Assembly (NCBI GenBank): GCA_963783375.1
Contig: CAWANH010000028.1
Coordinates: 1,389,670 to 1,453,669, forward strand
From: Candidatus Eiseniibacteriota bacterium
Lineage (GTDB): Bacteria; Eisenbacteria; RBG-16-71-46; JABDJR01
Direction: 5' to 3'
Length of the DNA: 64,000 bases
A program made the translations under genes and the position numbers. Below are positions 2,408 to 58,915 of this stretch, piece by piece. A model generated the notes under the pieces. That model did no database searches. It was not told the origin of the DNA and worked only from the letters and a program-made list of their open reading frames with translations. Every line of letters begins with the position of its first letter. The stretch's first letter is position 1.

Positions 2408-3322
2408 ATGCTCGAGATCCGCGATCTGGTCAAGGTCTACCCCGGCCCCGTGGTCGCCCTCCAGGACGTGAGGCTGGACATCCCCACCGGCATGTTCGGG
2501 CTCCTGGGCCCGAACGGCGCGGGAAAGACCACCCTGATGCGCATCCTGGCCGGGCTCCTCGAACCCACCTCGGGATCGGTCACCCTGGACGGCGATCCGA
2601 TCCTGGAGAACCCGAAGCGGCTCTGGGAGCGTCTCGGCTACCTCCCCCAGGACTTCGGGTTCTATCCGCACCTGACCGGGGACGCCATGCTCGCCTATCT
2701 CCTGAACCTGAAGGGGGTGCGGGGGAACGGCAGCTCCAAGGCGCTCCGCGCCGAGCTCCTGGAGCGGGTGAACCTGACCTTCGCCGCCAAGCGCAAGGTG
2801 AAGTCCTACTCGGGGGGGATGCGCCAGCGCCTGGGGATCGCCCAGGCGGTGGCCGGCGACCCGCGGCTGATCATCGTGGACGAGCCGACCGCCGGGCTCG
2901 ATCCCGAGGAGCGCATCCGCTTCTACCGCATCCTGGCCGAGCTGGCCGAGAACCGCACGGTGATCCTCTCCACCCACATCGTGGAGGACGTGGCCGTCCT
3001 CTGCCCCCGCTTCGCGGTCATTCGCGAGGGGCGGGTGATCGCGCGCACCACCCCCACCGCGGCCCGCGAGGCCATCGAGGGGGCGGTGTTCGAGGGCCGG
3101 GTCGCCGGCGGCGACCTGGAGGAACTCGGCCGGAAGCACGTGGTGACCCAGGCCATCCTGGTGGAGGGGAAGAACCGGGTGCGGATCTACTCTCCCGACG
3201 CACCCCCGCCCGCGGGCTTCGATCCGGTCCCCGCCACCCTCGAGGACGCCTACCTGGTCCTCATGCGGACGGGTAACGCGGGCCTGGCCGAGACCCTGGC
3301 CGCGGCGGGAGCGGAATCATGA
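2408..3322 (+). CDS. ABC transporter ATP-binding protein
   Basis: Walker [13 protein letters not shown] signature SGGMRQRLGIAQ, Walker B IIVDEPTAGLD. ATG at 2408. Its stop overlaps the next start in an ATGA. Confidence 0.9.
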   Translation: MLEIRDLVKVYPGPVVALQDVRLDIPTGMFGLLGPNGAGKTTLMRILAGLLEPTSGSVTLDGDPILENPKRLWERLGYLPQDFGFYPHLTGDAMLAYLLNLKGVRGNGSSKALRAELLERVNLTFAAKRKVKSYSGGMRQRLGIAQAVAGDPRLIIVDEPTAGLDPEERIRFYRILAELAENRTVILSTHIVEDVAVLCPRFAVIREGRVIARTTPTAAREAIEGAVFEGRVAGGDLEELGRKHVVTQAILVEGKNRVRIYSPDAPPPAGFDPVPATLEDAYLVLMRTGNAGLAETLAAAGAES

Positions 3323-48547: not shown

Positions 48548-49516
48548 TCAACCCAAATGAGACAGCTCCGGTTCTGGGTTAAGAGAGACTTCGGTTCGGT
48601 AGAGCGCCGGCAGGATCCGTTCCTCCGGCGTGACCGACAGGCCCTGGTTCAGGCGGCACCGACGGCGTAGGGTCTGCCGCTTGAACTTCTCCCGGGCGGT
48701 CTCGATGTCCCGTCCCCGCCCGTAGTAGACATCCGCCGGCGTCAGGTTGTTCAGCGACTCGTGCACGCGCTCGTGGTTGTAGTACCTCACGAACCGCTCC
48801 AGCTCCGCCTCCAACTCCCACGGCAGGTAGTAGTTCTGGAGCTTCACCACGTTCTTCATCGTCCGGTGGTACCGCTCGATCTTCCCCTGGGTCATCGGGT
48901 GATAGGGCTTTCCCCGGGTGTGGGTCATGCCATGGCTCTGGAGGTACTCGGCCAGCTCCTTCGAGATGAAGCACGGACCGTAGTCGCTCAGGAGCCGGGG
49001 TCGGTGCCGGACCTCCACCCGGCGGACTCCGGTCCGCTCCAGGGCCACGTCCAGGACCTCGGTCACATCCTCGCTCGACATCCCGGTGAAGAGCTTCCAG
49101 GCCAGGATGTAGCGGCTGTAGTCGTCCAGCACCGTGAGCACGTAGTACCAGCCCCAGCCTACCACCTTGAAGTACGTGAAGTCGGTCTGCCAGAGCTCGT
49201 GGACCCGCCGGGTCGGCTGGTCGAACTGGTCCTTGGCCGAGATCAGCACGTAGGCCGGGCTCGTCACCAGGTCGTAGCTCTTCAGGATCCGGTAGACGCT
49301 GGACTCCGAAATGAAGAACCCGCCCCGGTCGGTGATCCGCCAGGCCAGCTCCCGCGGGGACAGATCCGGCTCCGCCAGCGCCTCTTCCACAACCTTCTCC
49401 CGCTCCACCTCTGGGATCCGGTTCCAGAACGGCCGGGGCCCGGCGGCTTCGGCTCCAGCCCCGCCGGGCCGCCGTCCACGTACGCCCCGTCCGGCGGATC
49501 GGCGAAAAGGGGACAT
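48548..49516 (-). CDS. IS3-family transposase OrfB (DDE integrase core)
   Basis: rve-type core from WQTDFTYFKV through LSDYGPCFISKE to the C-terminal ERVHESLNNLTPADVY. Its stop codon is supplied by flanking DNA 8 nt outside the IS end. Confidence 0.75.
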   Translation of the reverse strand: MSPFRRSAGRGVRGRRPGGAGAEAAGPRPFWNRIPEVEREKVVEEALAEPDLSPRELAWRITDRGGFFISESSVYRILKSYDLVTSPAYVLISAKDQFDQPTRRVHELWQTDFTYFKVVGWGWYYVLTVLDDYSRYILAWKLFTGMSSEDVTEVLDVALERTGVRRVEVRHRPRLLSDYGPCFISKELAEYLQSHGMTHTRGKPYHPMTQGKIERYHRTMKNVVKLQNYYLPWELEAELERFVRYYNHERVHESLNNLTPADVYYGRGRDIETAREKFKRQTLRRRCRLNQGLSVTPEERILPALYRTEVSLNPEPELSHLG

Positions 49517-50050
49517 TTCAGTTCGGCGAAATCGGGACAGCCGGGACCGGCGTTGACACCTCCACCAGGCGGATCGTCTACATCCGCTCCGCCGCCGTCG
49601 CCCTCACCGCGCCCCCAGGTCCTCGGGGTCCTCCCCCAACCCGGCTAAGTTTCTTTTTAACAGCTGGTTCCGCAGCGATAGGTCCGCCACCAGGTGCTTC
49701 AGCCGCCCGTTCTCCCGGCGCAACTCCGTCACGTCCCCGCTCGAGGCTTCCCGCTTGGTGTCGCCCATCAGCCGGCGCTTGCGCGCCTCCAGGAACTCCT
49801 TGCTCCAGTTGTAGTAGAGGTTCGGGCTGATCCCTTCCCGGCGGCAGAGCTCCGCGATGCTCTCCTCGCCCTTCAACCCCTCCAGCACGATCCGGATCTT
49901 GTCCTCGGCGGATTACCGGCGGCGGGTCTTCCGGCGGATCTGACGAACTCGAGCCTCTGGATCGGTTTGCTTCTCGGCCATGAAACACTCCTTTCGTGGC
50001 ACCAATGTACCGCAGAAGTGTCTCTTAACTCAGGCCCTGACTCTGTCCCA
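48558..50050 (-). mobile_element. IS3-family insertion sequence (1493 bp) with TG-initiated imperfect terminal inverted repeats; orfA is inactivated
   Basis: Left end TGAGACAGCTCCGGTTCTGGGTTAAGAGAGACTTCGG. Reverse complement of the right end TGGGACAGAGTCAGGGCCTGAGTTAAGAGACACTTCTG. orfA and orfB are internal. No clean target-site duplication. Confidence 0.7.
49604..49981 (-). pseudogene. IS3-family OrfA (HTH) with an in-frame TAA at codon 23
   Basis: From the ATG at 49981, MAEKQTDPEARVRQIRRKTRRR then TAA (49913-15), where a Tyr codon TAC is expected. This is followed by SAEDKIRIVLEGLKGEESIAELCRREGISPNLYYNWSKEF. The TTAAAAAGA slippery-like site near the 3' end leads into a -1 frame that terminates after 27 codons, not into orfB. 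Confidence 0.6.
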
Positions 50051-52030: not shown

Positions 52031-52282
52031 TCAGTCGTCCTCGTTCTCGAAATTGAGTTCGATATCCTCCGGTTGCAACCTGGGCAACGACCGATCAGGG
52101 AACGTCTCGCGTGCCCAGTTCTCGGCGTAGCGCACAGCCACGGCACGAATCACGGCCCGCCCCGGGAGCCCCGTGTGCTCCACGATCCGGGCGAGACGGC
52201 GCTCCGAGGGACCTTTCAGACTGAAGTACAGATCCGCCAACTCCCTACCGGTGAACGTCTTCGAGGCGTCGATCGGTAACAT
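52031..52282 (-). CDS. small hypothetical protein (83 aa)
   Basis: MLPIDASKTFTGRELADLYFSLKGPSERRLARIVEHTGLPGRAVIRAV... No family recognised. Convergent with the previous gene. Confidence 0.35.
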   Translation of the reverse strand: MLPIDASKTFTGRELADLYFSLKGPSERRLARIVEHTGLPGRAVIRAVAVRYAENWARETFPDRSLPRLQPEDIELNFENEDD

Positions 52283-52377: not shown

Positions 52378-53202
52378 CTAGCGAGGAGCAGCGAGAACCG
52401 CTTCAAACCCGGATGGGGTCCGGTAGGTCACGGCGAGGAAGGTCCGCCCGGACGTTTCGCTGCCGACGGGCGTTCGAATCTGGAACCGGTCGCCCTCGGC
52501 TGGCAGTTCGCCCCAGGAAAGCGTTAACGCTGGCAACCTGAGGATCGCCAGCCGACAGTCCGAGGCCTCAGGAGGGATGGATGCCTGATAGGTGCCGCCT
52601 CCCTCGGTCCGGAACGAGACCGTGCGTCCGCCCTGGGTGGTAGCGGGCGGGACCGGCTCCCCCTCGACGACGATTCCCCCCTCAGTCCATCGGAGTCTCT
52701 GGCGGAAGGCCAAGAGAGCGGCTTCTCGGAAGTCTTGAGGTGGTCGTGTCTGGGTCGCCTTGGACCCACGAACCGCGTCCACTTGGAACTGCTCACCGTA
52801 GTAGGGCGTATCCGCCACGAAACTAAGGGCTTCCCCGGATGGGTGCCGGACGCCACGAGCCAGGCCAATGGCGACGGCCAGCACGGCCGCCAGGCCCATC
52901 AGGAGTTGGATCGTCCGGGAGGGCCTGCGCTTGCGCCGCCGTTTGGGCACCACGGGGCGCGGCAGGGTCTGGAACTTCAGGGTGCCGCGCGCGATGGCGG
53001 CCAGGCCGACAAGCTCCTCCCGGAGCTCTCCGGATTGCGCGAGGAGCTGTGTGATGCGCTCCCGGTCCTCGGGAGTTACCGTTCCGTCAAGATAGTCCTC
53101 CAAGAGCTCGAGATCCACCTCCTCCGGGGACGACCGGAGGGCGAGGGATCGGAGGGCCGCTGAGAGTTCGGTGTCCGTCATGTGCTTCGCTTCACGCGCC
53201 AT
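52378..53202 (-). CDS. putative membrane-anchored anti-sigma factor
   Basis: Cytoplasmic N-domain, a basic stretch, then a single TM helix IQLLMGLAAVLAVAIGLA. Periplasmic beta-rich C-domain. Starts 13 nt after the ECF sigma gene. Confidence 0.5.
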   Translation of the reverse strand: MAREAKHMTDTELSAALRSLALRSSPEEVDLELLEDYLDGTVTPEDRERITQLLAQSGELREELVGLAAIARGTLKFQTLPRPVVPKRRRKRRPSRTIQLLMGLAAVLAVAIGLARGVRHPSGEALSFVADTPYYGEQFQVDAVRGSKATQTRPPQDFREAALLAFRQRLRWTEGGIVVEGEPVPPATTQGGRTVSFRTEGGGTYQASIPPEASDCRLAILRLPALTLSWGELPAEGDRFQIRTPVGSETSGRTFLAVTYRTPSGFEAVLAAPR

Positions 53203-53214
53203 CGGTCATACCCT

Positions 53215-53856
53215 CTACCGTCCGAGTTCCACGGAGATCCCCGTCCGCTCCAGTTGCTCGGTGAGCTTCCTCCGGCAATAGCGAACCTGGTCCGAGAGCT
53301 TCTTGTTCTCACTTGGCCCGGCTCCCAGGAGAATCTGAAGCTCTTGGGGTGTGTAGCCCTCGGCCGCGGCCTTGAGGAGGAGCTGACACTGTGGCGAGAG
53401 ATGCTCCAAGGCCACCTCGACCTGCCGGAGGAGCTCCGCGAGTTCGGCTTGAACCTCGGGATCTGGCTCGGAGCTCTCAAGGGCCTCCAAGAGCTCACTT
53501 AGATCTTCGTGCCGGCGGTGCTGCTCGTATTTCATGCAATCCCGCGTGCGATTGCGAAGCACCGTCCAAAACCAGGAGGCGAAGGCCCGCCCCTTGTTTT
53601 CGTAGCTCCGCAACCGCCGGAAGTCATCCTCTCGAAGATCGAACAGAAGTTTTTGAAAGAGGTCAGCTTGATCCTCTTCGGACAGAGAACGAAAGATGGC
53701 TGGAGGTCGGAGCTGAACCAGCCGCCACGCATAGACATAAAGCTCTTCCCACGCCTTCTCGGGATTGGCGTCGAGCCAGTCCATGAAGGACGGCCAAGGA
53801 TCAGCGAGGATGGAAAAGGCGACAGGGTCCGTCCGGCCTGTCTCGACCTGAGACAT
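53215..53856 (-). CDS. ECF (sigma-70 family) RNA polymerase sigma factor with an N-terminal extension
   Basis: Region 2 DLFQKLLFDLREDDFRRLRSYENKGRAFASWFWTVLRNRTRDC. Region 4 CQLLLKAAAEGYTPQELQILLG...SDQVRYCRRKL. Start assigned at MSQVETGR (53856). Confidence 0.75.
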   Translation of the reverse strand: MSQVETGRTDPVAFSILADPWPSFMDWLDANPEKAWEELYVYAWRLVQLRPPAIFRSLSEEDQADLFQKLLFDLREDDFRRLRSYENKGRAFASWFWTVLRNRTRDCMKYEQHRRHEDLSELLEALESSEPDPEVQAELAELLRQVEVALEHLSPQCQLLLKAAAEGYTPQELQILLGAGPSENKKLSDQVRYCRRKLTEQLERTGISVELGR

Positions 53857-53938: not shown

Positions 53939-54973
53939 TCAGGCGGCGGATTTCGGAATAGAAACCGCCAAATGTGCTGCTTTGAGAGAGTTCCAGGGGC
54001 AGCCCAAGTCCTCCGCCTGCCCCGTGGCCACCCCCTGTAGCCACGGGGCCAATCTACCGGGATCGAGGACAAGGGTTCCGTCGGGGTTGATCCGGCCGAC
54101 CCGGTTCCGGGAGTCGGTAAGGGCGACCGTGCACTTGTTGAGGTCTCCGTTCGCCCGGATGACCCAGGATGTGGCCATGGCCGCGTAGCAGATTGGAGGC
54201 GGTGGTGGGGCGGCATAGAGCCCAAGTTCCTCTGCTCTGTGCCGCAAGACCGCGATCGTCTCGTGCCCGTTGTGCCCGTCTAGTACGGGCAAGATCGGAT
54301 CGTTCACTCCCCCGAGTCGCTCCAACGGCCGGATGAAAAAGGAGAACCGTGCGTCGTGCGCGAACGCCTGGGCACACTCCGTGAGGAGCTCTGGCAAGCG
54401 TTCGGCATTGGCCCGGGTGACATGGATCCGGACGATCACAGAGAAGGGCAAGCGCTGGTCCTTTAGCGCGACGAGGCTCTCCCAGACTTGGGCGAACGTC
54501 CCCCTGCCGTTGGGGCGCTTCCTCACCGCATCATGGTCGGGCTCAACCCCATCGAGGGTGATCTGGTAGTGCATGACACCGAGCCGAATGAGCTCCTCGG
54601 CGGTTCCGGGGGAGAGAAGGTCGCCGTTTGTGGTCATGTCCGAATCGACTTGGACCGCGGGATGCCGAGTGCGCAAATCTTGGACGTGGGCCATGATCTC
54701 ACGCACGACGTCAAGGGCGACGAGCGGTTCCCCACCGAACCAGGACAGATCGAGCCGGCAGAGGTCGGGCACGCGAACATCGAGCAACCGTTTGATCCCC
54801 TGCACCACGGGCGGAGGCATGCGGGACAGCCGGAAGTCCTCGTAGCAGTAGTGGCAGCGGAAGTTACAGCGCTCGGTCGAAAAGAGGACGAGATGGAGCC
54901 GTCGGGACGAGAGGGCCTTCCCGTACCCCGAAGCTCCGCTCTGCTTGGTGGGTCTCACTTGGCGCGTCAGCAC
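53939..54973 (-). CDS. radical SAM / SPASM-domain peptide-modifying enzyme
   Basis: CNFRCHYC radical SAM motif, plus C-terminal SPASM cysteines (ICYAAMATSWVIRANGDLNKCTV...C). The track ORF extends to a GTG at 55204, but that extension has only ~52% GC3. Start reassigned to the GTG at 54973 (alternative 54958). Confidence 0.8.
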   Translation of the reverse strand: MLTRQVRPTKQSGASGYGKALSSRRLHLVLFSTERCNFRCHYCYEDFRLSRMPPPVVQGIKRLLDVRVPDLCRLDLSWFGGEPLVALDVVREIMAHVQDLRTRHPAVQVDSDMTTNGDLLSPGTAEELIRLGVMHYQITLDGVEPDHDAVRKRPNGRGTFAQVWESLVALKDQRLPFSVIVRIHVTRANAERLPELLTECAQAFAHDARFSFFIRPLERLGGVNDPILPVLDGHNGHETIAVLRHRAEELGLYAAPPPPPICYAAMATSWVIRANGDLNKCTVALTDSRNRVGRINPDGTLVLDPGRLAPWLQGVATGQAEDLGCPWNSLKAAHLAVSIPKSAA

Positions 54974-55170
54974 TTGTAGTTCGGAAGGATCGGCGGCCAG
55001 TCGTCTCCGTTGGGCTCCTGTAACGATGTGGTAAGCGTGGACACCACGCGGCCATGCGCGTCGAATTGGAGTTCGTGGCGGACAGGCATCTGGGCGTGCG
55101 CGGGCCGAGTTCCGAGGAGAAGGGTGACAAGCATGGCGCCTTGGAGCGTATACGTCGCAGATCGTTCCAC
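54967..55170 (-). CDS. small exported Cys-terminal peptide (67 aa), a candidate precursor/substrate of the adjacent rSAM-SPASM enzyme
   Basis: GTG at 55170 with a GGAGG RBS 6 nt upstream. VERSATYTLQGAMLVTLLLGTRPAHAQ (signal-like, AHA-Q) is followed by MPVRHELQFDAHGRVVSTLTTSLQEPNGDDWPPILPNYKC. GC3 in this frame is ~73% versus ~52% in the overlapping rSAM-extension frame. Its stop overlaps the rSAM GTG. Confidence 0.45.
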   Translation of the reverse strand: MERSATYTLQGAMLVTLLLGTRPAHAQMPVRHELQFDAHGRVVSTLTTSLQEPNGDDWPPILPNYKC

Positions 55171-55215
55171 AGCAGACCTCCGGTCGAAACGGACACCGCC
55201 CCACGGCGGAGGTCG

Positions 55216-58188
55216 CTAGTCTCCGACCGCGAGGAAACAGGCCCAGTAGTAGGGATGAGTTGGTCTACCCGTAGAACGCCTGATCTGGAGAGTTTCGGAC
55301 GAGGTATAGAAAGCCGCAACACTTGCCGAGCCGTCACGGTCCAGGAAGTGATCGTAGAAGCGCAGGCACCAGTCCCGACTCGGGTGATCTCCGATGTCCC
55401 AGATGGAAAGGATCGCGCTGTGTGCACCGGCGAGACGGAACGCGCGGTAAAGGCCAGCCACGCGCTCGCCCGGGAGCGCCGTTCCCTCGGATGACCGACA
55501 GCTAGAGAGGAAGACCAGCTCGACCGAGGAGAAGTCCTCCAAGGCGATCTCCCGTTCGCCCCAGACTCCGTCAAAGCCGCTCGAGTCAGCTAGCGGCCTG
55601 ACTAGTCGCAAGCCGGCGCACGGCTCTCCGGTGAGCGGATCGGTCCAGTCGACGCCGTGGGCCGCAAGGTGCACAACGCGGGAGCCCGGGATGCGGCGAG
55701 GAAGGACACTCTCCCGCGCGGACGTCCCGGTGAGCAATGTCACTGGTTCACCCGGTCGGCGCTTCTTCCAAAGGGTAACGACTTGCTCCGCCTCATCGAG
55801 CGAGGCGGGGAGCTCAGCCGGGGCTCCTGACCCCCATGCGGAGTAGTCAACACCACCGACGGCCAGAAGCCCCTTCCCGGTGGCCTCGCTCGCGGGCGAG
55901 ATGAGCTCCCGCTCGCTCTCGGCGAGCCGGAAGCTTCCGAGCTCTTCCACGAGGTACGAGGTACGACCACGGGGGAGGGCAAGGACATTCACGTTCCACA
56001 GCGGCCCCGTCGGGATCAGCACGAGATCTTTGGGGAGGTTGCCGCCGAAGATGGGGTCCAACAACAGGTGGCGGAGGGCGGCGCCGAGGGATCGGTACGC
56101 CGCTTCTGCCCCGTCGGGGTCCAAGATGAGTTCCTCGGGGGCTTGCTCCATGAGGGTCTGTTGGCTGGTGACGAGGGTGTCAATCCGGCTGGCGGCCCCC
56201 AGATCCTGGAAGCGGACGTCCTTCTCAGGCTCCATGAGAAAGGCTCCGTAGTGAGGGGCGTTGCCTTTGCCGTACTGGACGTAGGCGATGAGCGTTGTCT
56301 CCGGGGGGAGCCCTTTGCGGAGGGCCTGAGTATCCAGGGTCGGACGAGTTGGGGTGATCGGCCGGGAGGCAGCCAAGCGTTCTTCGAACCGCGCGATTTC
56401 GCCGTCCAGCCGCTGAAGCAACTTGGGAGAGACGGGTGCGAGGCCCTCGACCGGGTCCATGGTGAGCAGGTTGGCCAGGTGCCGCTTGAGAGTACGGAGC
56501 GTGTCCGGTTCCGCTCCTAGCTCTCGTCGGCGCGTGAGTTCGTCGAGAAGTGAGCCGCGCGAGCCGATGGCGAGCGTCCATGCCGCCTCGACGAAGCGAC
56601 TTCCCTTGCATGCGTCGTCGCTCAGGAGAGAGAGGAGGAGATCCAGGGAGGAGACCTCCTCCTTCCAGTAGGCGCTGATCTGCTCGGAAGTCATCGCCTG
56701 GAGGTTGAGCTGGTACCGATGGAGAGAGGCGGAGGCGGCATCATAGGCGAGCTCCCAGGCCGCGCGCGGATGACCTTGGGCGGAGCGAAGCTCACCCGCG
56801 GTTTCGTCCACTTTGGACCGAACGATGTGGTCCCGTGGTAGGGCCTTGACGGAGCTCAGAGCCTGAGCCGCCCAGCGCTCAGCCTCGGGCAGCCGGCCCC
56901 GGGCGGATAGGAACCGCACGTAGTCGGCGGCCAGGGAGCCAAACAAGGCCGGCTCTTTGGAGGGGTCCGCGTTCGCAAGACCCTTCTGGAAGAGCGAATC
57001 GGCACGGTTGGTACGACCGAGGCGCACGTCCAAGCGTGCGAGACGGGCCAGGGTGGGAACGGTCAAGGGGGAGTTGGCTCCGTAGATTCCCGTGAAGTAT
57101 TTGAGGCTCGCCCGCAGCGTGTCGACCCCAGCCTGAAAGTGACCCTCCCTCTCCAGGATGTATGCCTGGATGGAGTAGTTCCGATTTCTCGTGCGCTCAT
57201 CGGCGCCGTAGCGCTTGGCCACCTGCCGAAACCGCTCCTCGAGCCGTTTGGTACCCGGGAGGTCTCCCAGGCGGCTTGTGATCTCTGCCGCCGTGACCGT
57301 TGTCCCCGCCGCGAGGGCCTTCTCGAGGTCCGGATGCCGCTCGATCGTCTCACTCACCTCGGTGATGACTTTGAGGGCGTCCCGGAAGTCTCCCTCCGCG
57401 GCGAGGCAAACGGCATATCCCCATCCGGTCTGGCAGAACAAGTGCGGCAAGCGGTTGCGGCGTGCCTCATAGGCCTGACGATAGAGATCCTCTGCCTCCG
57501 GCAAGCGACCCATTCCATGGAGGATCACGGCATAGTCGTTACTCGTCCAGGCGAGATCGAGATCTTGCGGGGAAAGGACACGCTTCCTCACCTCGTAGAC
57601 ATGGGCGATGTGCTGGAGAGCCTCGGCGCGTCGCTTGAAGTGATCCAGGGTCTGTGCAAGCCCATGCTCGGCCCACAGGGTCTCGCGGTCGTCCGGTCCC
57701 AGGGTCTTGACGAGGATCTGCCAGGATTTGAGGAAGTCCCGATGGGCGGCTTCGAAGTTCCCAGTTGACAGATTCCAGCGAGCGTACCGCTCCAGGGTTA
57801 TGTCGTAGCCGGCGGAGGAGTCGCCGGCGACCGCGGCCCAGTCCGTCAGGGCGCGAGAGAGGTACTTGCCGGCCTCCTCAGTGCTGTCACCCCGGGCCAG
57901 GGCCCAGCCGTAGTCTCGGTGGAAGCGGGCGGAGAGGGAATCGGGTGGGCCCGAGGAGTCTAAACACCCGAGAAGCCGAGTGTAGGCAATGAGCGCCTCG
58001 GGGAAACGGCGGTTGGCGAGCAGGCTGTCCGCCACCGTAAGTTCTTGACGTATAACGGATTTGCTGCATGGCCACGACACCTCCTGGCAGAGACCGGGTA
58101 CAGAGGTGATGCAGGGGGACAGGGCCAAGGCCACCACGGCGATGCAGCGGGCTGGCCACGTGGCTGGAGAGGCTGTTTTGGGGTTCAC
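55216..58188 (-). CDS. TPR-repeat / CHAT-domain (caspase-like) protease
   Basis: N-terminal hydrophobic segment, ~700 aa of TPR-like helical repeats, then a C-terminal CHAT domain (VVHLAAHGV...ELVFLSSCRS...HPYYWACFLAVGD). Ends 12 nt before the upstream end of the rSAM ORF. Confidence 0.8.
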   Translation of the reverse strand: MNPKTASPATWPARCIAVVALALSPCITSVPGLCQEVSWPCSKSVIRQELTVADSLLANRRFPEALIAYTRLLGCLDSSGPPDSLSARFHRDYGWALARGDSTEEAGKYLSRALTDWAAVAGDSSAGYDITLERYARWNLSTGNFEAAHRDFLKSWQILVKTLGPDDRETLWAEHGLAQTLDHFKRRAEALQHIAHVYEVRKRVLSPQDLDLAWTSNDYAVILHGMGRLPEAEDLYRQAYEARRNRLPHLFCQTGWGYAVCLAAEGDFRDALKVITEVSETIERHPDLEKALAAGTTVTAAEITSRLGDLPGTKRLEERFRQVAKRYGADERTRNRNYSIQAYILEREGHFQAGVDTLRASLKYFTGIYGANSPLTVPTLARLARLDVRLGRTNRADSLFQKGLANADPSKEPALFGSLAADYVRFLSARGRLPEAERWAAQALSSVKALPRDHIVRSKVDETAGELRSAQGHPRAAWELAYDAASASLHRYQLNLQAMTSEQISAYWKEEVSSLDLLLSLLSDDACKGSRFVEAAWTLAIGSRGSLLDELTRRRELGAEPDTLRTLKRHLANLLTMDPVEGLAPVSPKLLQRLDGEIARFEERLAASRPITPTRPTLDTQALRKGLPPETTLIAYVQYGKGNAPHYGAFLMEPEKDVRFQDLGAASRIDTLVTSQQTLMEQAPEELILDPDGAEAAYRSLGAALRHLLLDPIFGGNLPKDLVLIPTGPLWNVNVLALPRGRTSYLVEELGSFRLAESERELISPASEATGKGLLAVGGVDYSAWGSGAPAELPASLDEAEQVVTLWKKRRPGEPVTLLTGTSARESVLPRRIPGSRVVHLAAHGVDWTDPLTGEPCAGLRLVRPLADSSGFDGVWGEREIALEDFSSVELVFLSSCRSSEGTALPGERVAGLYRAFRLAGAHSAILSIWDIGDHPSRDWCLRFYDHFLDRDGSASVAAFYTSSETLQIRRSTGRPTHPYYWACFLAVGD

Positions 58189-58794: not shown

Positions 58795-58830
58795 TACGAA
58801 AGCCCCCATCCCGCAAGGGGATAGGGGCTT
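58795..58830 (-). terminator. hairpin downstream of the tRNA-Met 3' end
   Basis: On the minus strand, GCCCCTATCCCcttgcGGGATGGGGGC followed by TTTCGTATTCT. Confidence 0.4.
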
Positions 58831-58838
58831 CCTAAAAT

Positions 58839-58915
<77 letters not shown>

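Follow-up and report, generated by a model that had tools for sequence, protein, structure and literature searches.

A small gene beneath a radical SAM reading frame in an Eisenbacteria genome encodes a candidate precursor of a cross-linked peptide

The stretch of DNA analysed here (the window) comprises 64,000 nucleotides of Candidatus Eiseniibacteriota bacterium (GenBank assembly GCA_963783375.1, contig CAWANH010000028.1, positions 1,389,670 to 1,453,669 of the forward strand), and all coordinates below are counted from its first letter. On its minus strand, a gene of 67 codons (54967..55170) lies between the genes for a TPR-CHAT protein and a radical S-adenosylmethionine (rSAM) enzyme, where a reading of the longest open reading frame (ORF) merges part of it into the latter. 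This small ORF is almost certainly a real gene, and sequence features across its family indicate that its product is very probably the substrate of the adjacent enzyme. [quoted passage not shown]

The small ORF starts with a GTG codon at 55170 and ends with a TGA at 54967..54969. A Shine-Dalgarno sequence GGAGG (55177..55181, minus strand) can be read directly ahead of it, separated from the start by the 6-nt spacer TCTGCT, just as an initial annotation of this DNA had stated. The GC content by codon position of this frame (0.66/0.47/0.72) is nearly identical to that of the body of the rSAM gene (0.66/0.47/0.78), and the first 79 codons of the longest ORF, which encodes 421 aa (53939..55204) and is open from a GTG at 55204, show the pattern of a shifted frame (0.72/0.66/0.51). 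The third-position GC contents that the initial annotation had given for the small frame (~73%) and for the start of the long one (~52%) are therefore reproduced by the computed values. When 16 long window genes were used to train a log-odds model of codon usage, the small-ORF frame scored +0.07 bit/codon and the extension of the long ORF -1.00 bit/codon, as for off-frame DNA (controls were -1.10 +/- 0.29 for off-frame pieces and 0.67 +/- 0.33 for in-frame pieces, the latter with a 5th percentile of -0.03). The rSAM body itself reaches only 0.15 bit/codon, and codon bias is weak across the whole module to which these genes belong. The small gene is taken as real because codon-position GC and codon log-odds favour this frame alone, because the Shine-Dalgarno sequence, the spacer and the start position are kept in a relative, and because homologues of 54% and ~30% identity retain its length and architecture.

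The opposite reading would be that the 421-aa ORF is the true rSAM protein, endowed with an N-terminal domain rich in Cys, Pro and Arg, and that the 67-aa ORF is a chance frame in GC-rich DNA. Spurious long ORFs are common at 67% GC, the long frame is indeed open from 55204, and many rSAM enzymes of RiPP pathways carry an RRE of ~80-100 aa at their N-terminus, a region that would precede the point where the NCBIfam matches begin (about profile position 80). However, besides its off-frame codon score and its third-position GC of 0.51, the extension is present in none of the rSAM homologues (the best 120 of 2284 proteins with E <= 0.001 were listed, and 21 were aligned), the frame contains a stop codon in the region matching the extension in L091, the nearest independent relative with readable DNA, and the overlapping small frame is conserved as a protein. 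The best 120 of the 2284 homologues are mostly 324-376 aa long, with the exceptions of one 400-aa match and one 257-aa frameshifted call, and in the 21 aligned sequences the start lies about 18-60 residues ahead of the CxxxCxxC motif, in agreement with the expectation that homologous genes start near it; orthologues with a conserved N-terminal domain of ~100 aa, which would have spoken for the long form, were absent from the homologues inspected. An RRE-bearing long form of the enzyme was consequently rejected by codon score, homologue lengths and the L091 stop, and we regard the reading of the 67-aa ORF as a chance frame as extremely improbable: the 77-codon 5' extension is an artefact of choosing the longest ORF. 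The enzyme would rather start at the GTG at 54973, which overlaps the stop of the peptide gene (an alternative in-frame GTG lies at 54958), giving a protein of 344 aa (53939..54973, minus strand) with 35 residues ahead of CxxxCxxC. The proposed overlap between the small-ORF stop and the rSAM GTG is thus borne out, with a lead of 35 aa instead of the ~33 aa indicated before.

Public gene calls, checked in a collection of 15 billion proteins, agree with this start, as P0001 is exactly the 344-aa form and the 421-aa form has no call there. The description of the small gene as overlooked stands in view of its coding signal and conservation, and what does not stand is the claim that the 421-aa form had been annotated. 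As for the peptide, the exact 67-aa form has no match in the collection, and a 55-aa version with an ATG start, P0122, has been called in Logan/ENA assemblies, with no NCBI source listed among its calls. This public call is probably too short; the 67-aa start is favoured because P0127, a relative from an independent metagenome, keeps neither Met13 nor Met28 of the window peptide. The 55-aa call shares its 90% identity cluster with a 406-aa protein (P0275; ENA contig, 3912 bp), in which peptide and rSAM enzyme were probably fused through an indel error of a noisy assembly. With no NCBI-sourced call, Logan/ENA calls that are too short, and a longest-ORF reading that absorbs part of the gene, this locus illustrates how small RiPP precursors of GC-rich genomes are lost through such gene calling.

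The conservation of the small ORF, set beforehand as a test, was found through a profile search and an exhaustive HMMER search for independent relatives. P0127 has 67 aa (MERSAKYVLHGAALATLLLGAQSSTAQPVIHHEITFDQYGRVEGVPASLTPEPGDDDWPGSLPNYKC), is 54% identical to the window peptide and begins with the same MERSA. For P0127, and in L091, an ATG occupies the place of the GTG of the window and is preceded by the same GGAGG and a 6-nt spacer, and purine-rich sequences similar to a Shine-Dalgarno precede the start in L083, L085, L088 and L097. Ten more clusters of 64-70 aa (P0123-P0126, P0133, P0140, P0143, P0151, P0154 and P0225), which are ~30% identical to the window peptide, keep its architecture, most of them with the C-terminal end ..GPPN-x-x-CPC. 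Across this clade, the residues M1, R3, L14, L18, A26, F36, D37, G40, R41, P59, P63, N64 and C67 are invariant, and in all cases the gene is positioned between a CHAT gene and an rSAM gene. On the other hand, the first matches obtained (P0121 and P0122, in L001, L089 and L090) were rejected as independent support, since their DNA is essentially identical to the window over the aligned small-ORF region, with indels in L001; judging from the DNA, the 93% match reflects indel errors of a noisy assembly. The clade profile also matched hundreds of repeat proteins of 400-3000 aa (P0128-P0273), with 3-21 matched stretches per protein and repeats such as SYTxADITVDAQGRITAA in P0148, P0212 and P0263. 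These matches involve the FDxxGR region alone, so that the large proteins were judged to carry a generic beta-hairpin repeat and were not retained as homologues; the FDxxGR motif of the peptide probably resembles such a repeat without being homologous to it.

The 344-aa protein matches the Pfam Radical_SAM model (E = 4.5e-17). Besides the three cysteines of CxxxCxxC (C36/C40/C43), only three Cys residues are invariant in 21 aligned sequences, and they form a C-x13-G-x4-C...C pattern (C262-x13-G276-x4-C281 and C325) that, from the alignment, corresponds to a reduced, twitch-like version of the SPASM domain; the Pfam SPASM models themselves give no match on this protein. In NCBIfam, models of RiPP maturases score highest (TIGR04463, geopeptide, Clo7bot, CefB and PapB), and their scores of 80-112 bits, against cut-offs of 340-600, indicate that no curated NCBIfam family covers the enzyme. 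The closest sequences in the PDB are CteB (E = 8e-9) and SkfB, and an AlphaFold2 model of the enzyme (pLDDT 87.9) has its best fold match again in CteB (E = 2.8e-14, TM-score 0.64-0.66), followed by the anaerobic sulfatase-maturating enzyme (anSME), ChlB with a precursor leader, SkfB and SuiB, with the epimerase EpeE also among the structural matches. The protein has no RRE, as it starts ~35 aa before CxxxCxxC and its NCBIfam alignments begin at about profile position 80, and the gene table and a Pfam scan revealed no RRE-like gene in the module. More than 2000 matches at E <= 0.001 place the enzyme in a family spread across many phyla, whose members in Calothrix and Pseudoalteromonas stand beside precursors with a GG leader and an ABC exporter with a C39 peptidase, with or without HlyD, in a classical RiPP layout. 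When metagenome contigs were scanned with the rSAM protein of the window, the single locus retrieved was irrelevant.

Within the peptide, residues 33-43 (ELQFDAHGRVV; 55042..55074, minus strand) form a leader motif, whose F36, D37, G40 and R41 are invariant in the clade, and which is presumed from its conservation to be the element recognized by the rSAM enzyme. With the consensus h-x-F/h-D/N-x-x-G-R/K/E-h, the motif also occurs in the precursors of distant family members (L004, L005, L006, L007, L008, L012, L034 and L088), in forms such as VELDDAGRIVL (Streptomyces), IAINEDGELVV (Calothrix), VRIDSSGKVVI and LSFDQNGRVFL. The core of the peptide (residues 56-67, DDWPPILPNYKC; 54970..55005, minus strand) holds the invariant P59, P63, N64 and C67 and ends in P-N64-Y-K-C67-stop, where Cys67 is both the only Cys and the last residue of the peptide. 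The N-x-x-C motif is found in 12/12 clade members and in 11 of the 14 precursors of the wider family, where it was counted 19 times against an expectation of 2.8, with none of 5000 shuffles reaching 19; Asn occupies position -3 for 19 of the 32 cysteines in the tails of these 14 precursors. Tails rich in this motif, from small ORFs beside rSAM genes, include ..DINYKCNPGC, ..DNLWCDSGC, NRACTNDGCGGDNRACSNAGCT, ..NAMCPC and ..VNFGC, and members ending in ..N-x-Q-C-P-C could conceivably form a second ring between Gln and the final Cys.

Many loci of several bacterial phyla and of one archaeal metagenome-assembled genome (MAG) have, beside their rSAM gene, a small ORF that carries the leader motif and has Cys in its C-terminus. 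Such an ORF adjoins the rSAM gene on the same strand in L083-L085, L088, L091-L097, L002 and many loci of the wider family, and overlaps it in the window and in L097. This recurrence of the leader motif and the Cys-bearing end beside the enzyme, together with the enrichment of N-x-x-C and the classical RiPP layouts of the family, is the reason to assign the peptide a role as substrate. A different possibility is that the ORF encodes a genuine secreted mini-protein that might bind the anti-sigma factor or the CHAT protein, for instance, with the rSAM enzyme acting elsewhere. In keeping with this idea, the leader motif ties the peptide to distant precursors with little statistical weight: in a search of the window's 1280 six-frame segments with a hidden Markov model (HMM) of the motif (18 residues, from 8 distant precursor sequences with the clade excluded), the small ORF came first, but at E ~1, which is not significant alone and was taken as a hint. 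Yet the small ORF adjoins the rSAM gene in the same position in every relative, even overlapping it in two cases, and shares its leader motif and N-x-x-C core with the precursors of classical RiPP clusters served by the same enzyme family, which makes a role unconnected with the enzyme very improbable. The arrangement of precursors is not uniform, and their architecture is regarded as variable in the family because some loci differ: the precursor lies 3' of the rSAM gene in L003 (3415..3798) and L022 (7120..7311), the leader motif occurs twice and N-x-x-C three times in that of L003, and two precursor genes stand in tandem in L054 (5369..5949).

The site proposed for the modification, N64-Y-K-C67 (54970..54981, minus strand), is pointed out by the invariance of N-x-x-C. 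A link between Asn64 and Cys67 is inferred because this motif is enriched and because the closest comparator with an interpretable context is a streptococcal locus of the NxxC type, and a thioether is favoured because the closest solved fold is that of the thioether synthase CteB. The streptococcal locus, L030, in which a 431-aa rSAM enzyme is accompanied by a 28-aa peptide (..FNNLVCGAGC), an Rgg-like regulator and an ABC transporter, is presumed to be a streptococcal radical SAM RiPP (RaS-RiPP) cluster of the NxxC subfamily, matching its published layout. The window enzyme is 29% identical to the L030 enzyme (136 bits, E = 5e-41) and shares with it the auxiliary-cluster motif CYAxxxNS...G...KCTV, but lacks its N-terminal ~77 aa and its C-terminal CxxCxxxxxC...C region. 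In the NxxC system, NxxcB joins the beta carbon of Asn to the sulfur of Cys, between Asn20 and Cys23 of NxxcA, the Cys has been proposed to bind an auxiliary cluster of the enzyme, and Gln, Asp or Ala are tolerated as acceptors (PMC9389541, PMC8326336). The pair Asn20-Cys23 would have its parallel in the proposed N64-C67, likewise in an Asn-x-x-Cys core beside an rSAM enzyme. The two systems nevertheless differ in most other respects. NxxcB is reported to have a SPASM domain with two auxiliary clusters (PMC11851443), whereas the window enzyme is ~90 aa shorter, has no N-terminal RRE and holds three invariant auxiliary Cys instead of a full SPASM domain. The window module has neither a shp/rgg regulator nor an ABC exporter, its precursor has a signal-like N-terminus and a different leader, it is accompanied by a TPR-CHAT protease and by an ECF sigma factor with its anti-sigma, and the hosts of modules of this type are environmental lineages of the Gram-negative type.

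CteB, the closest solved structure by both sequence and fold, and PapB, among the best NCBIfam matches, are the ranthipeptide synthases of the SCIFF and freyrasin systems, which make thioethers between Cys and side chains. Their first difference from the window system lies in the enzymes, with an RRE in CteB or a full SPASM domain, and the second in their precursors, which have multiple Cys and no signal peptide. The first auxiliary cluster of CteB reportedly has an open site that takes a Cys of the substrate. A further parallel is offered by anSME, an rSAM/SPASM enzyme that modifies a Cys or Ser of signal-bearing sulfatases in the cytoplasm before their export. This enzyme ranks high among the structural matches to the window model and sets a precedent for export by Sec after an rSAM enzyme has acted, but it makes formylglycine and no cross-link, its substrates are large enzymes and not a dedicated 67-aa peptide, and its NCBIfam model gives the window enzyme 53 bits against a cut-off of 349. 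QhpD, in turn, is an rSAM enzyme that installs thioethers between Cys and Asp/Glu in a small polypeptide, QhpC, destined for the periplasm. The window enzyme shows a weak match to its family (TIGR03906, 47 bits against a cut-off of 453); QhpC differs from the window peptide in being an enzyme subunit with several cross-links and another export route, and its system is not known to involve a CHAT protein or sigma factor. A candidate relationship with the FxSxx-COOH system, raised by TPR matches to NF040586, was rejected, as the score of 82 bits fell far below the cut-off of 300 and the C-terminus of the peptide is not of the FxSxx form.

By analogy with these systems, Cys67 would supply the fourth ligand of an auxiliary Fe-S cluster held by three Cys, a 5'-deoxyadenosyl radical would abstract a hydrogen from Asn64, and a thioether ring of four residues would form between Asn64 and Cys67. 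We lean towards this chemistry with a confidence only a little above even. The bond would be made to the beta carbon, as by NxxcB, or possibly instead to the alpha carbon, as in the link that QmpB forms on Asn (PMC11851443). The peptide could also be a true substrate of the enzyme that undergoes some other reaction, such as a sactionine-type link to an alpha carbon, an oxidation of Cys as by anSME, an epimerisation or another cross-link, and this is possible, if clearly the less likely outcome. Sequence does not reveal the regiochemistry, the structural matches include anSME and the epimerase EpeE, the window enzyme has no counterpart of the second auxiliary-cluster motif of NxxcB (PMC11851443), and GggB and QmpB resemble ranthisynthases and yet form alpha-carbon links (PMC10288494, PMC11851443). 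What speaks for the thioether ring is that conservation of the core across the family is dominated by Asn at position -3 of Cys, that the streptococcal NxxC-type locus gives the best pairwise match among those whose context can be interpreted, and that the closest solved fold belongs to a thioether synthase.

The first 26 residues of the peptide (MERSATYTLQGAMLVTLLLGTRPAHA; 55093..55170, minus strand) resemble a signal peptide, with an N-terminal region MER.., a hydrophobic core AMLVTLLLG and a putative AHA|Q cleavage site. All 12 clade members, despite their low identity, show a basic N-terminal region followed by an uncharged hydrophobic stretch of 14-26 residues, often with AxA|Q, and several have sites of a textbook type (ANA|Q, TSA|Q, STA|Q). 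Maximum hydropathy over 10 residues ranges from 1.8 to 2.9 in these 12 members versus -1.2 to 1.3 in 12 precursors of other branches, and none of the latter has the signal-like architecture. The reading of this segment as a Sec signal is supported because the layout is kept in 12/12 clade members and absent from 12/12 other precursors, and export of the peptide through Sec seems reasonably likely on these sequence features. The initial annotation had proposed a Sec-like signal peptide followed by a mature part of 40 aa; the first of these claims holds as a putative assignment by conserved features, and the second has to be corrected, since cleavage after AHA would leave 41 residues.

Alternatively, the modified peptide might keep its N-terminal segment as a membrane anchor or as an additional leader, and have its function in the cytoplasm or on the inner side of the membrane. 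The short hydrophobic core (~10 residues) and the near-zero net charge of the N-terminal region in the window, the poor residues at positions -3/-1 of some clade members (RPA, YQV) and the existence of related CHAT-linked precursors devoid of such a segment would all fit an anchor or leader. However, the layout of basic, hydrophobic and small residues is conserved, with AxA|Q in the window peptide, P0127, P0143 and P0151; most of the uncharged stretches, at 14-26 residues, fall short of the length that a stable transmembrane helix needs; the gene tables of the window and its relatives show no exporter gene in the module, in contrast to the C39-ABC exporters of other branches of the family; and the partner CHAT and anti-sigma proteins display extracytoplasmic features. 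An anchor or leader of this kind is therefore thought unlikely, and a cleavable Sec signal is retained as the preferred reading.

Taken together, the peptide would be a ribosomal precursor modified by the adjacent rSAM enzyme, which would recognise the FDxxGR leader motif without an RRE domain, a step of lesser certainty. The modification would take place in the cytoplasm, before export, and the 26 N-terminal residues would then act as a Sec signal cleaved after AHA, delivering a 41-residue peptide of leader plus core into the envelope, a sequence of events to which we give moderate confidence. The signal peptide would in this way replace the ABC exporter with C39 peptidase of other branches of the family. 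More speculatively, once in the envelope the peptide might be a substrate, ligand or inhibitor of the exported TPR-CHAT protease, and both might control a switch formed by an anti-sigma factor with one transmembrane segment and the ECF sigma factor. As a whole, this explanation appears probable to us, its parts being of the unequal strength stated for each of them. Several observations weigh against it. The codon bias of the small gene is only marginally positive, although that of the rSAM gene is weak as well, and the substitutions between the window and L091 are evenly spread over codon positions (24/22/29), with no clear signature of synonymous change in this comparison at 54% identity. The HMM of distant precursors reaches the window ORF at no better than E ~1, and the signal of the window peptide is atypical in the charge and the short core mentioned above. 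Compared by description, and with L030 as a stand-in, the enzyme is unlike NxxcB in having neither an RRE nor a full SPASM domain. Finally, the CHAT-linked precursors of L002, L088 and L092-L094 have no signal-like segment, though their CHAT proteins look exported, and for this reason CHAT protein and peptide need not meet in the periplasm.

The genes of the module follow each other on the minus strand in the order TPR-CHAT, precursor, rSAM, ECF sigma, one-transmembrane anti-sigma and an ORF of 83 aa. The TPR-CHAT protein (~973-990 aa; 55216..58188) belongs to a caspase-like protease family, matches Pfam CHAT (E = 3.7e-32) and TPR_12/TPR_10, and begins with a hydrophobic signal-like segment. 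The dyad of CHAT His (HLAxHG; HLAAHG in the window) and Cys (LSxC; LSSC in the window) is conserved in 8/8 aligned homologues, most N-termini of these CHAT proteins are similar to signal peptides, such as MPPHVLLILAAVLLAGAEPA.. in L097, and in each of the near relatives inspected the gene lies immediately upstream of the precursor. The sigma factor (213 aa; 53215..53856), of the ECF type by its match to NCBIfam TIGR02937 (52 bits, cut-off 42.9), comes directly after the rSAM gene, with homology checked in L083/84, L085/86, L096 and L097. The anti-sigma factor (274 aa; 52378..53202) is recognized by weak zf-HC2 and anti-sigma matches, with a zf-HC2-like N-terminal region and a single hydrophobic, transmembrane segment at about residues 95-120; its ~150 extracytoplasmic residues gave no CHAT match in NCBIfam and Pfam scans. 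Homologues of it are found 3' of the sigma gene in L085/86, L096 and L097, a one-transmembrane gene of similar size, unmatched by the window protein, occupies its position in L083, and in the P0002 contigs both sigma (213/227 aa) and anti-sigma (274 aa) are known by matching gene size alone. The 83-aa ORF (52031..52282), which has no Pfam match, has counterparts of 83-84 aa, which take an equivalent place in the P0002 contigs and L089/L090, the relative of 74% identity included, and may belong to the module.

TPR-CHAT, small ORF and rSAM genes occur together in all ten near-relative groups examined, the list being the window, the P0002 contigs, L083/84, L085, L087/88, L002, L092, L093, L094, L095/96 and L097; these relatives include MAGs labelled Vicinamibacteria, Bacteroidota, Eisenbacteria, Deltaproteobacteria and Acidobacteriota. 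Sigma and anti-sigma genes lie directly 3' of the rSAM gene in 6/6 loci with a signal-bearing precursor, the window included, and in 0/5 loci whose precursor lacks the signal segment, and the five-gene order recurs in independent metagenomes. In L094, an ECF sigma gene is located further downstream, beyond an S8 peptidase. The signal-less CHAT loci (L002, 6927..9725; L094, 6050..8593; L087, 7338..9744) carry 3' of the rSAM gene, instead of the sigma and anti-sigma genes, a subtilase (S8), or a Ser/Thr kinase and a trypsin-like protease, which may be alternative processing or signalling partners.

A signalling role in the envelope is suggested because the six signal-bearing loci share the order of TPR-CHAT, precursor, rSAM, sigma and anti-sigma genes. 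Known systems provide an analogy for it. DdvA of Myxococcus xanthus is an anti-sigma factor with a periplasmic TPR-CHAT domain that controls the ECF sigma factor DdvS, and this domain has been proposed to trigger regulated proteolysis of the anti-sigma and hence the release of DdvS (PMC11506125), and in craspase the TPR-CHAT protease Csx29 cleaves Csx30, which is linked to an RpoE-like sigma factor (PMC10028731). Both couple a TPR-CHAT protease functionally to an ECF sigma factor and its inhibitor, as the window module may do, and the window sigma factor matches the type III-E RpoE-like family weakly (E = 9e-4). The TPR-CHAT of the window, unlike that of DdvA, is a separate protein not fused to the anti-sigma, and an rSAM enzyme and a peptide are part of neither known system. 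Control of the anti-sigma/sigma switch by the peptide and the TPR-CHAT protein can accordingly be offered as a tentative idea of rather low probability, and so can, with perhaps still less assurance, the broader proposal that the five genes make up an undescribed device of envelope signalling, in which a peptide with a minimal Asn-x-x-Cys thioether ring at its C-terminus, exported by Sec, would serve a secreted TPR-CHAT protease as ligand or substrate, and this protease would in turn gate the proteolysis of the anti-sigma factor and so activate the ECF sigma factor. Full-text literature searches retrieved no paper linking CHAT or TPR-CHAT proteins with radical SAM peptide maturation or RiPPs. 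In the window module there is neither an Rgg regulator nor an ABC transporter, and the gene tables covering the module and its relatives list no CRISPR or CBASS genes. With PADLOC, the rSAM protein drew weak matches of a generic kind to viperin, and the other four module proteins drew none.

The large family of short, RRE-less rSAM enzymes, with its more than 2000 matches, appears to act on N-x-x-C peptides far outside streptococci, and the exchange of a GG leader and a C39-ABC exporter for a Sec-type signal in one of its branches would, if true, be an unusual route for a RiPP. The conserved association with a TPR-CHAT protein and a sigma pair points to a regulatory role for a cross-linked peptide, and the module offers a testable handle on the activation of periplasmic TPR-CHAT proteases. 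Were this role correct, RiPP chemistry would serve here to make a regulatory signal of the cell's own, and not an antibiotic, with Sec replacing the usual dedicated exporter.

Some minor features were observed around the module. An ECF-type promoter (GAAC-N15-18-CGT) was sought upstream of the CHAT genes, and no canonical -35/-10 pair was found there. A short word of the TTTTCGG type is shared by these upstream regions, as TTTTCGGTGTGGG(G)AA in L083 (~2500..2530) and L085 (~2520..2550) and as GTTTTCGGGTTCG in the 600-nt leader region of the window (~58500, minus strand), and may be a promoter or operator. An Rfam scan reported only a tRNA. Just upstream of the TPR-CHAT gene lie a tRNA-Met(CAT) gene (58839..58915, minus strand) and a 15-bp hairpin similar to a terminator (58798..58832, minus strand), and an IS3-type transposase pair (HTH_Tnp_1 and rve; 48548..49912, minus strand) is found ~2 kb past the last gene of the module. 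The flanking position of the tRNA, the hairpin and the transposase pair, together with the weak codon bias of the module, suggests that it is an acquired island.

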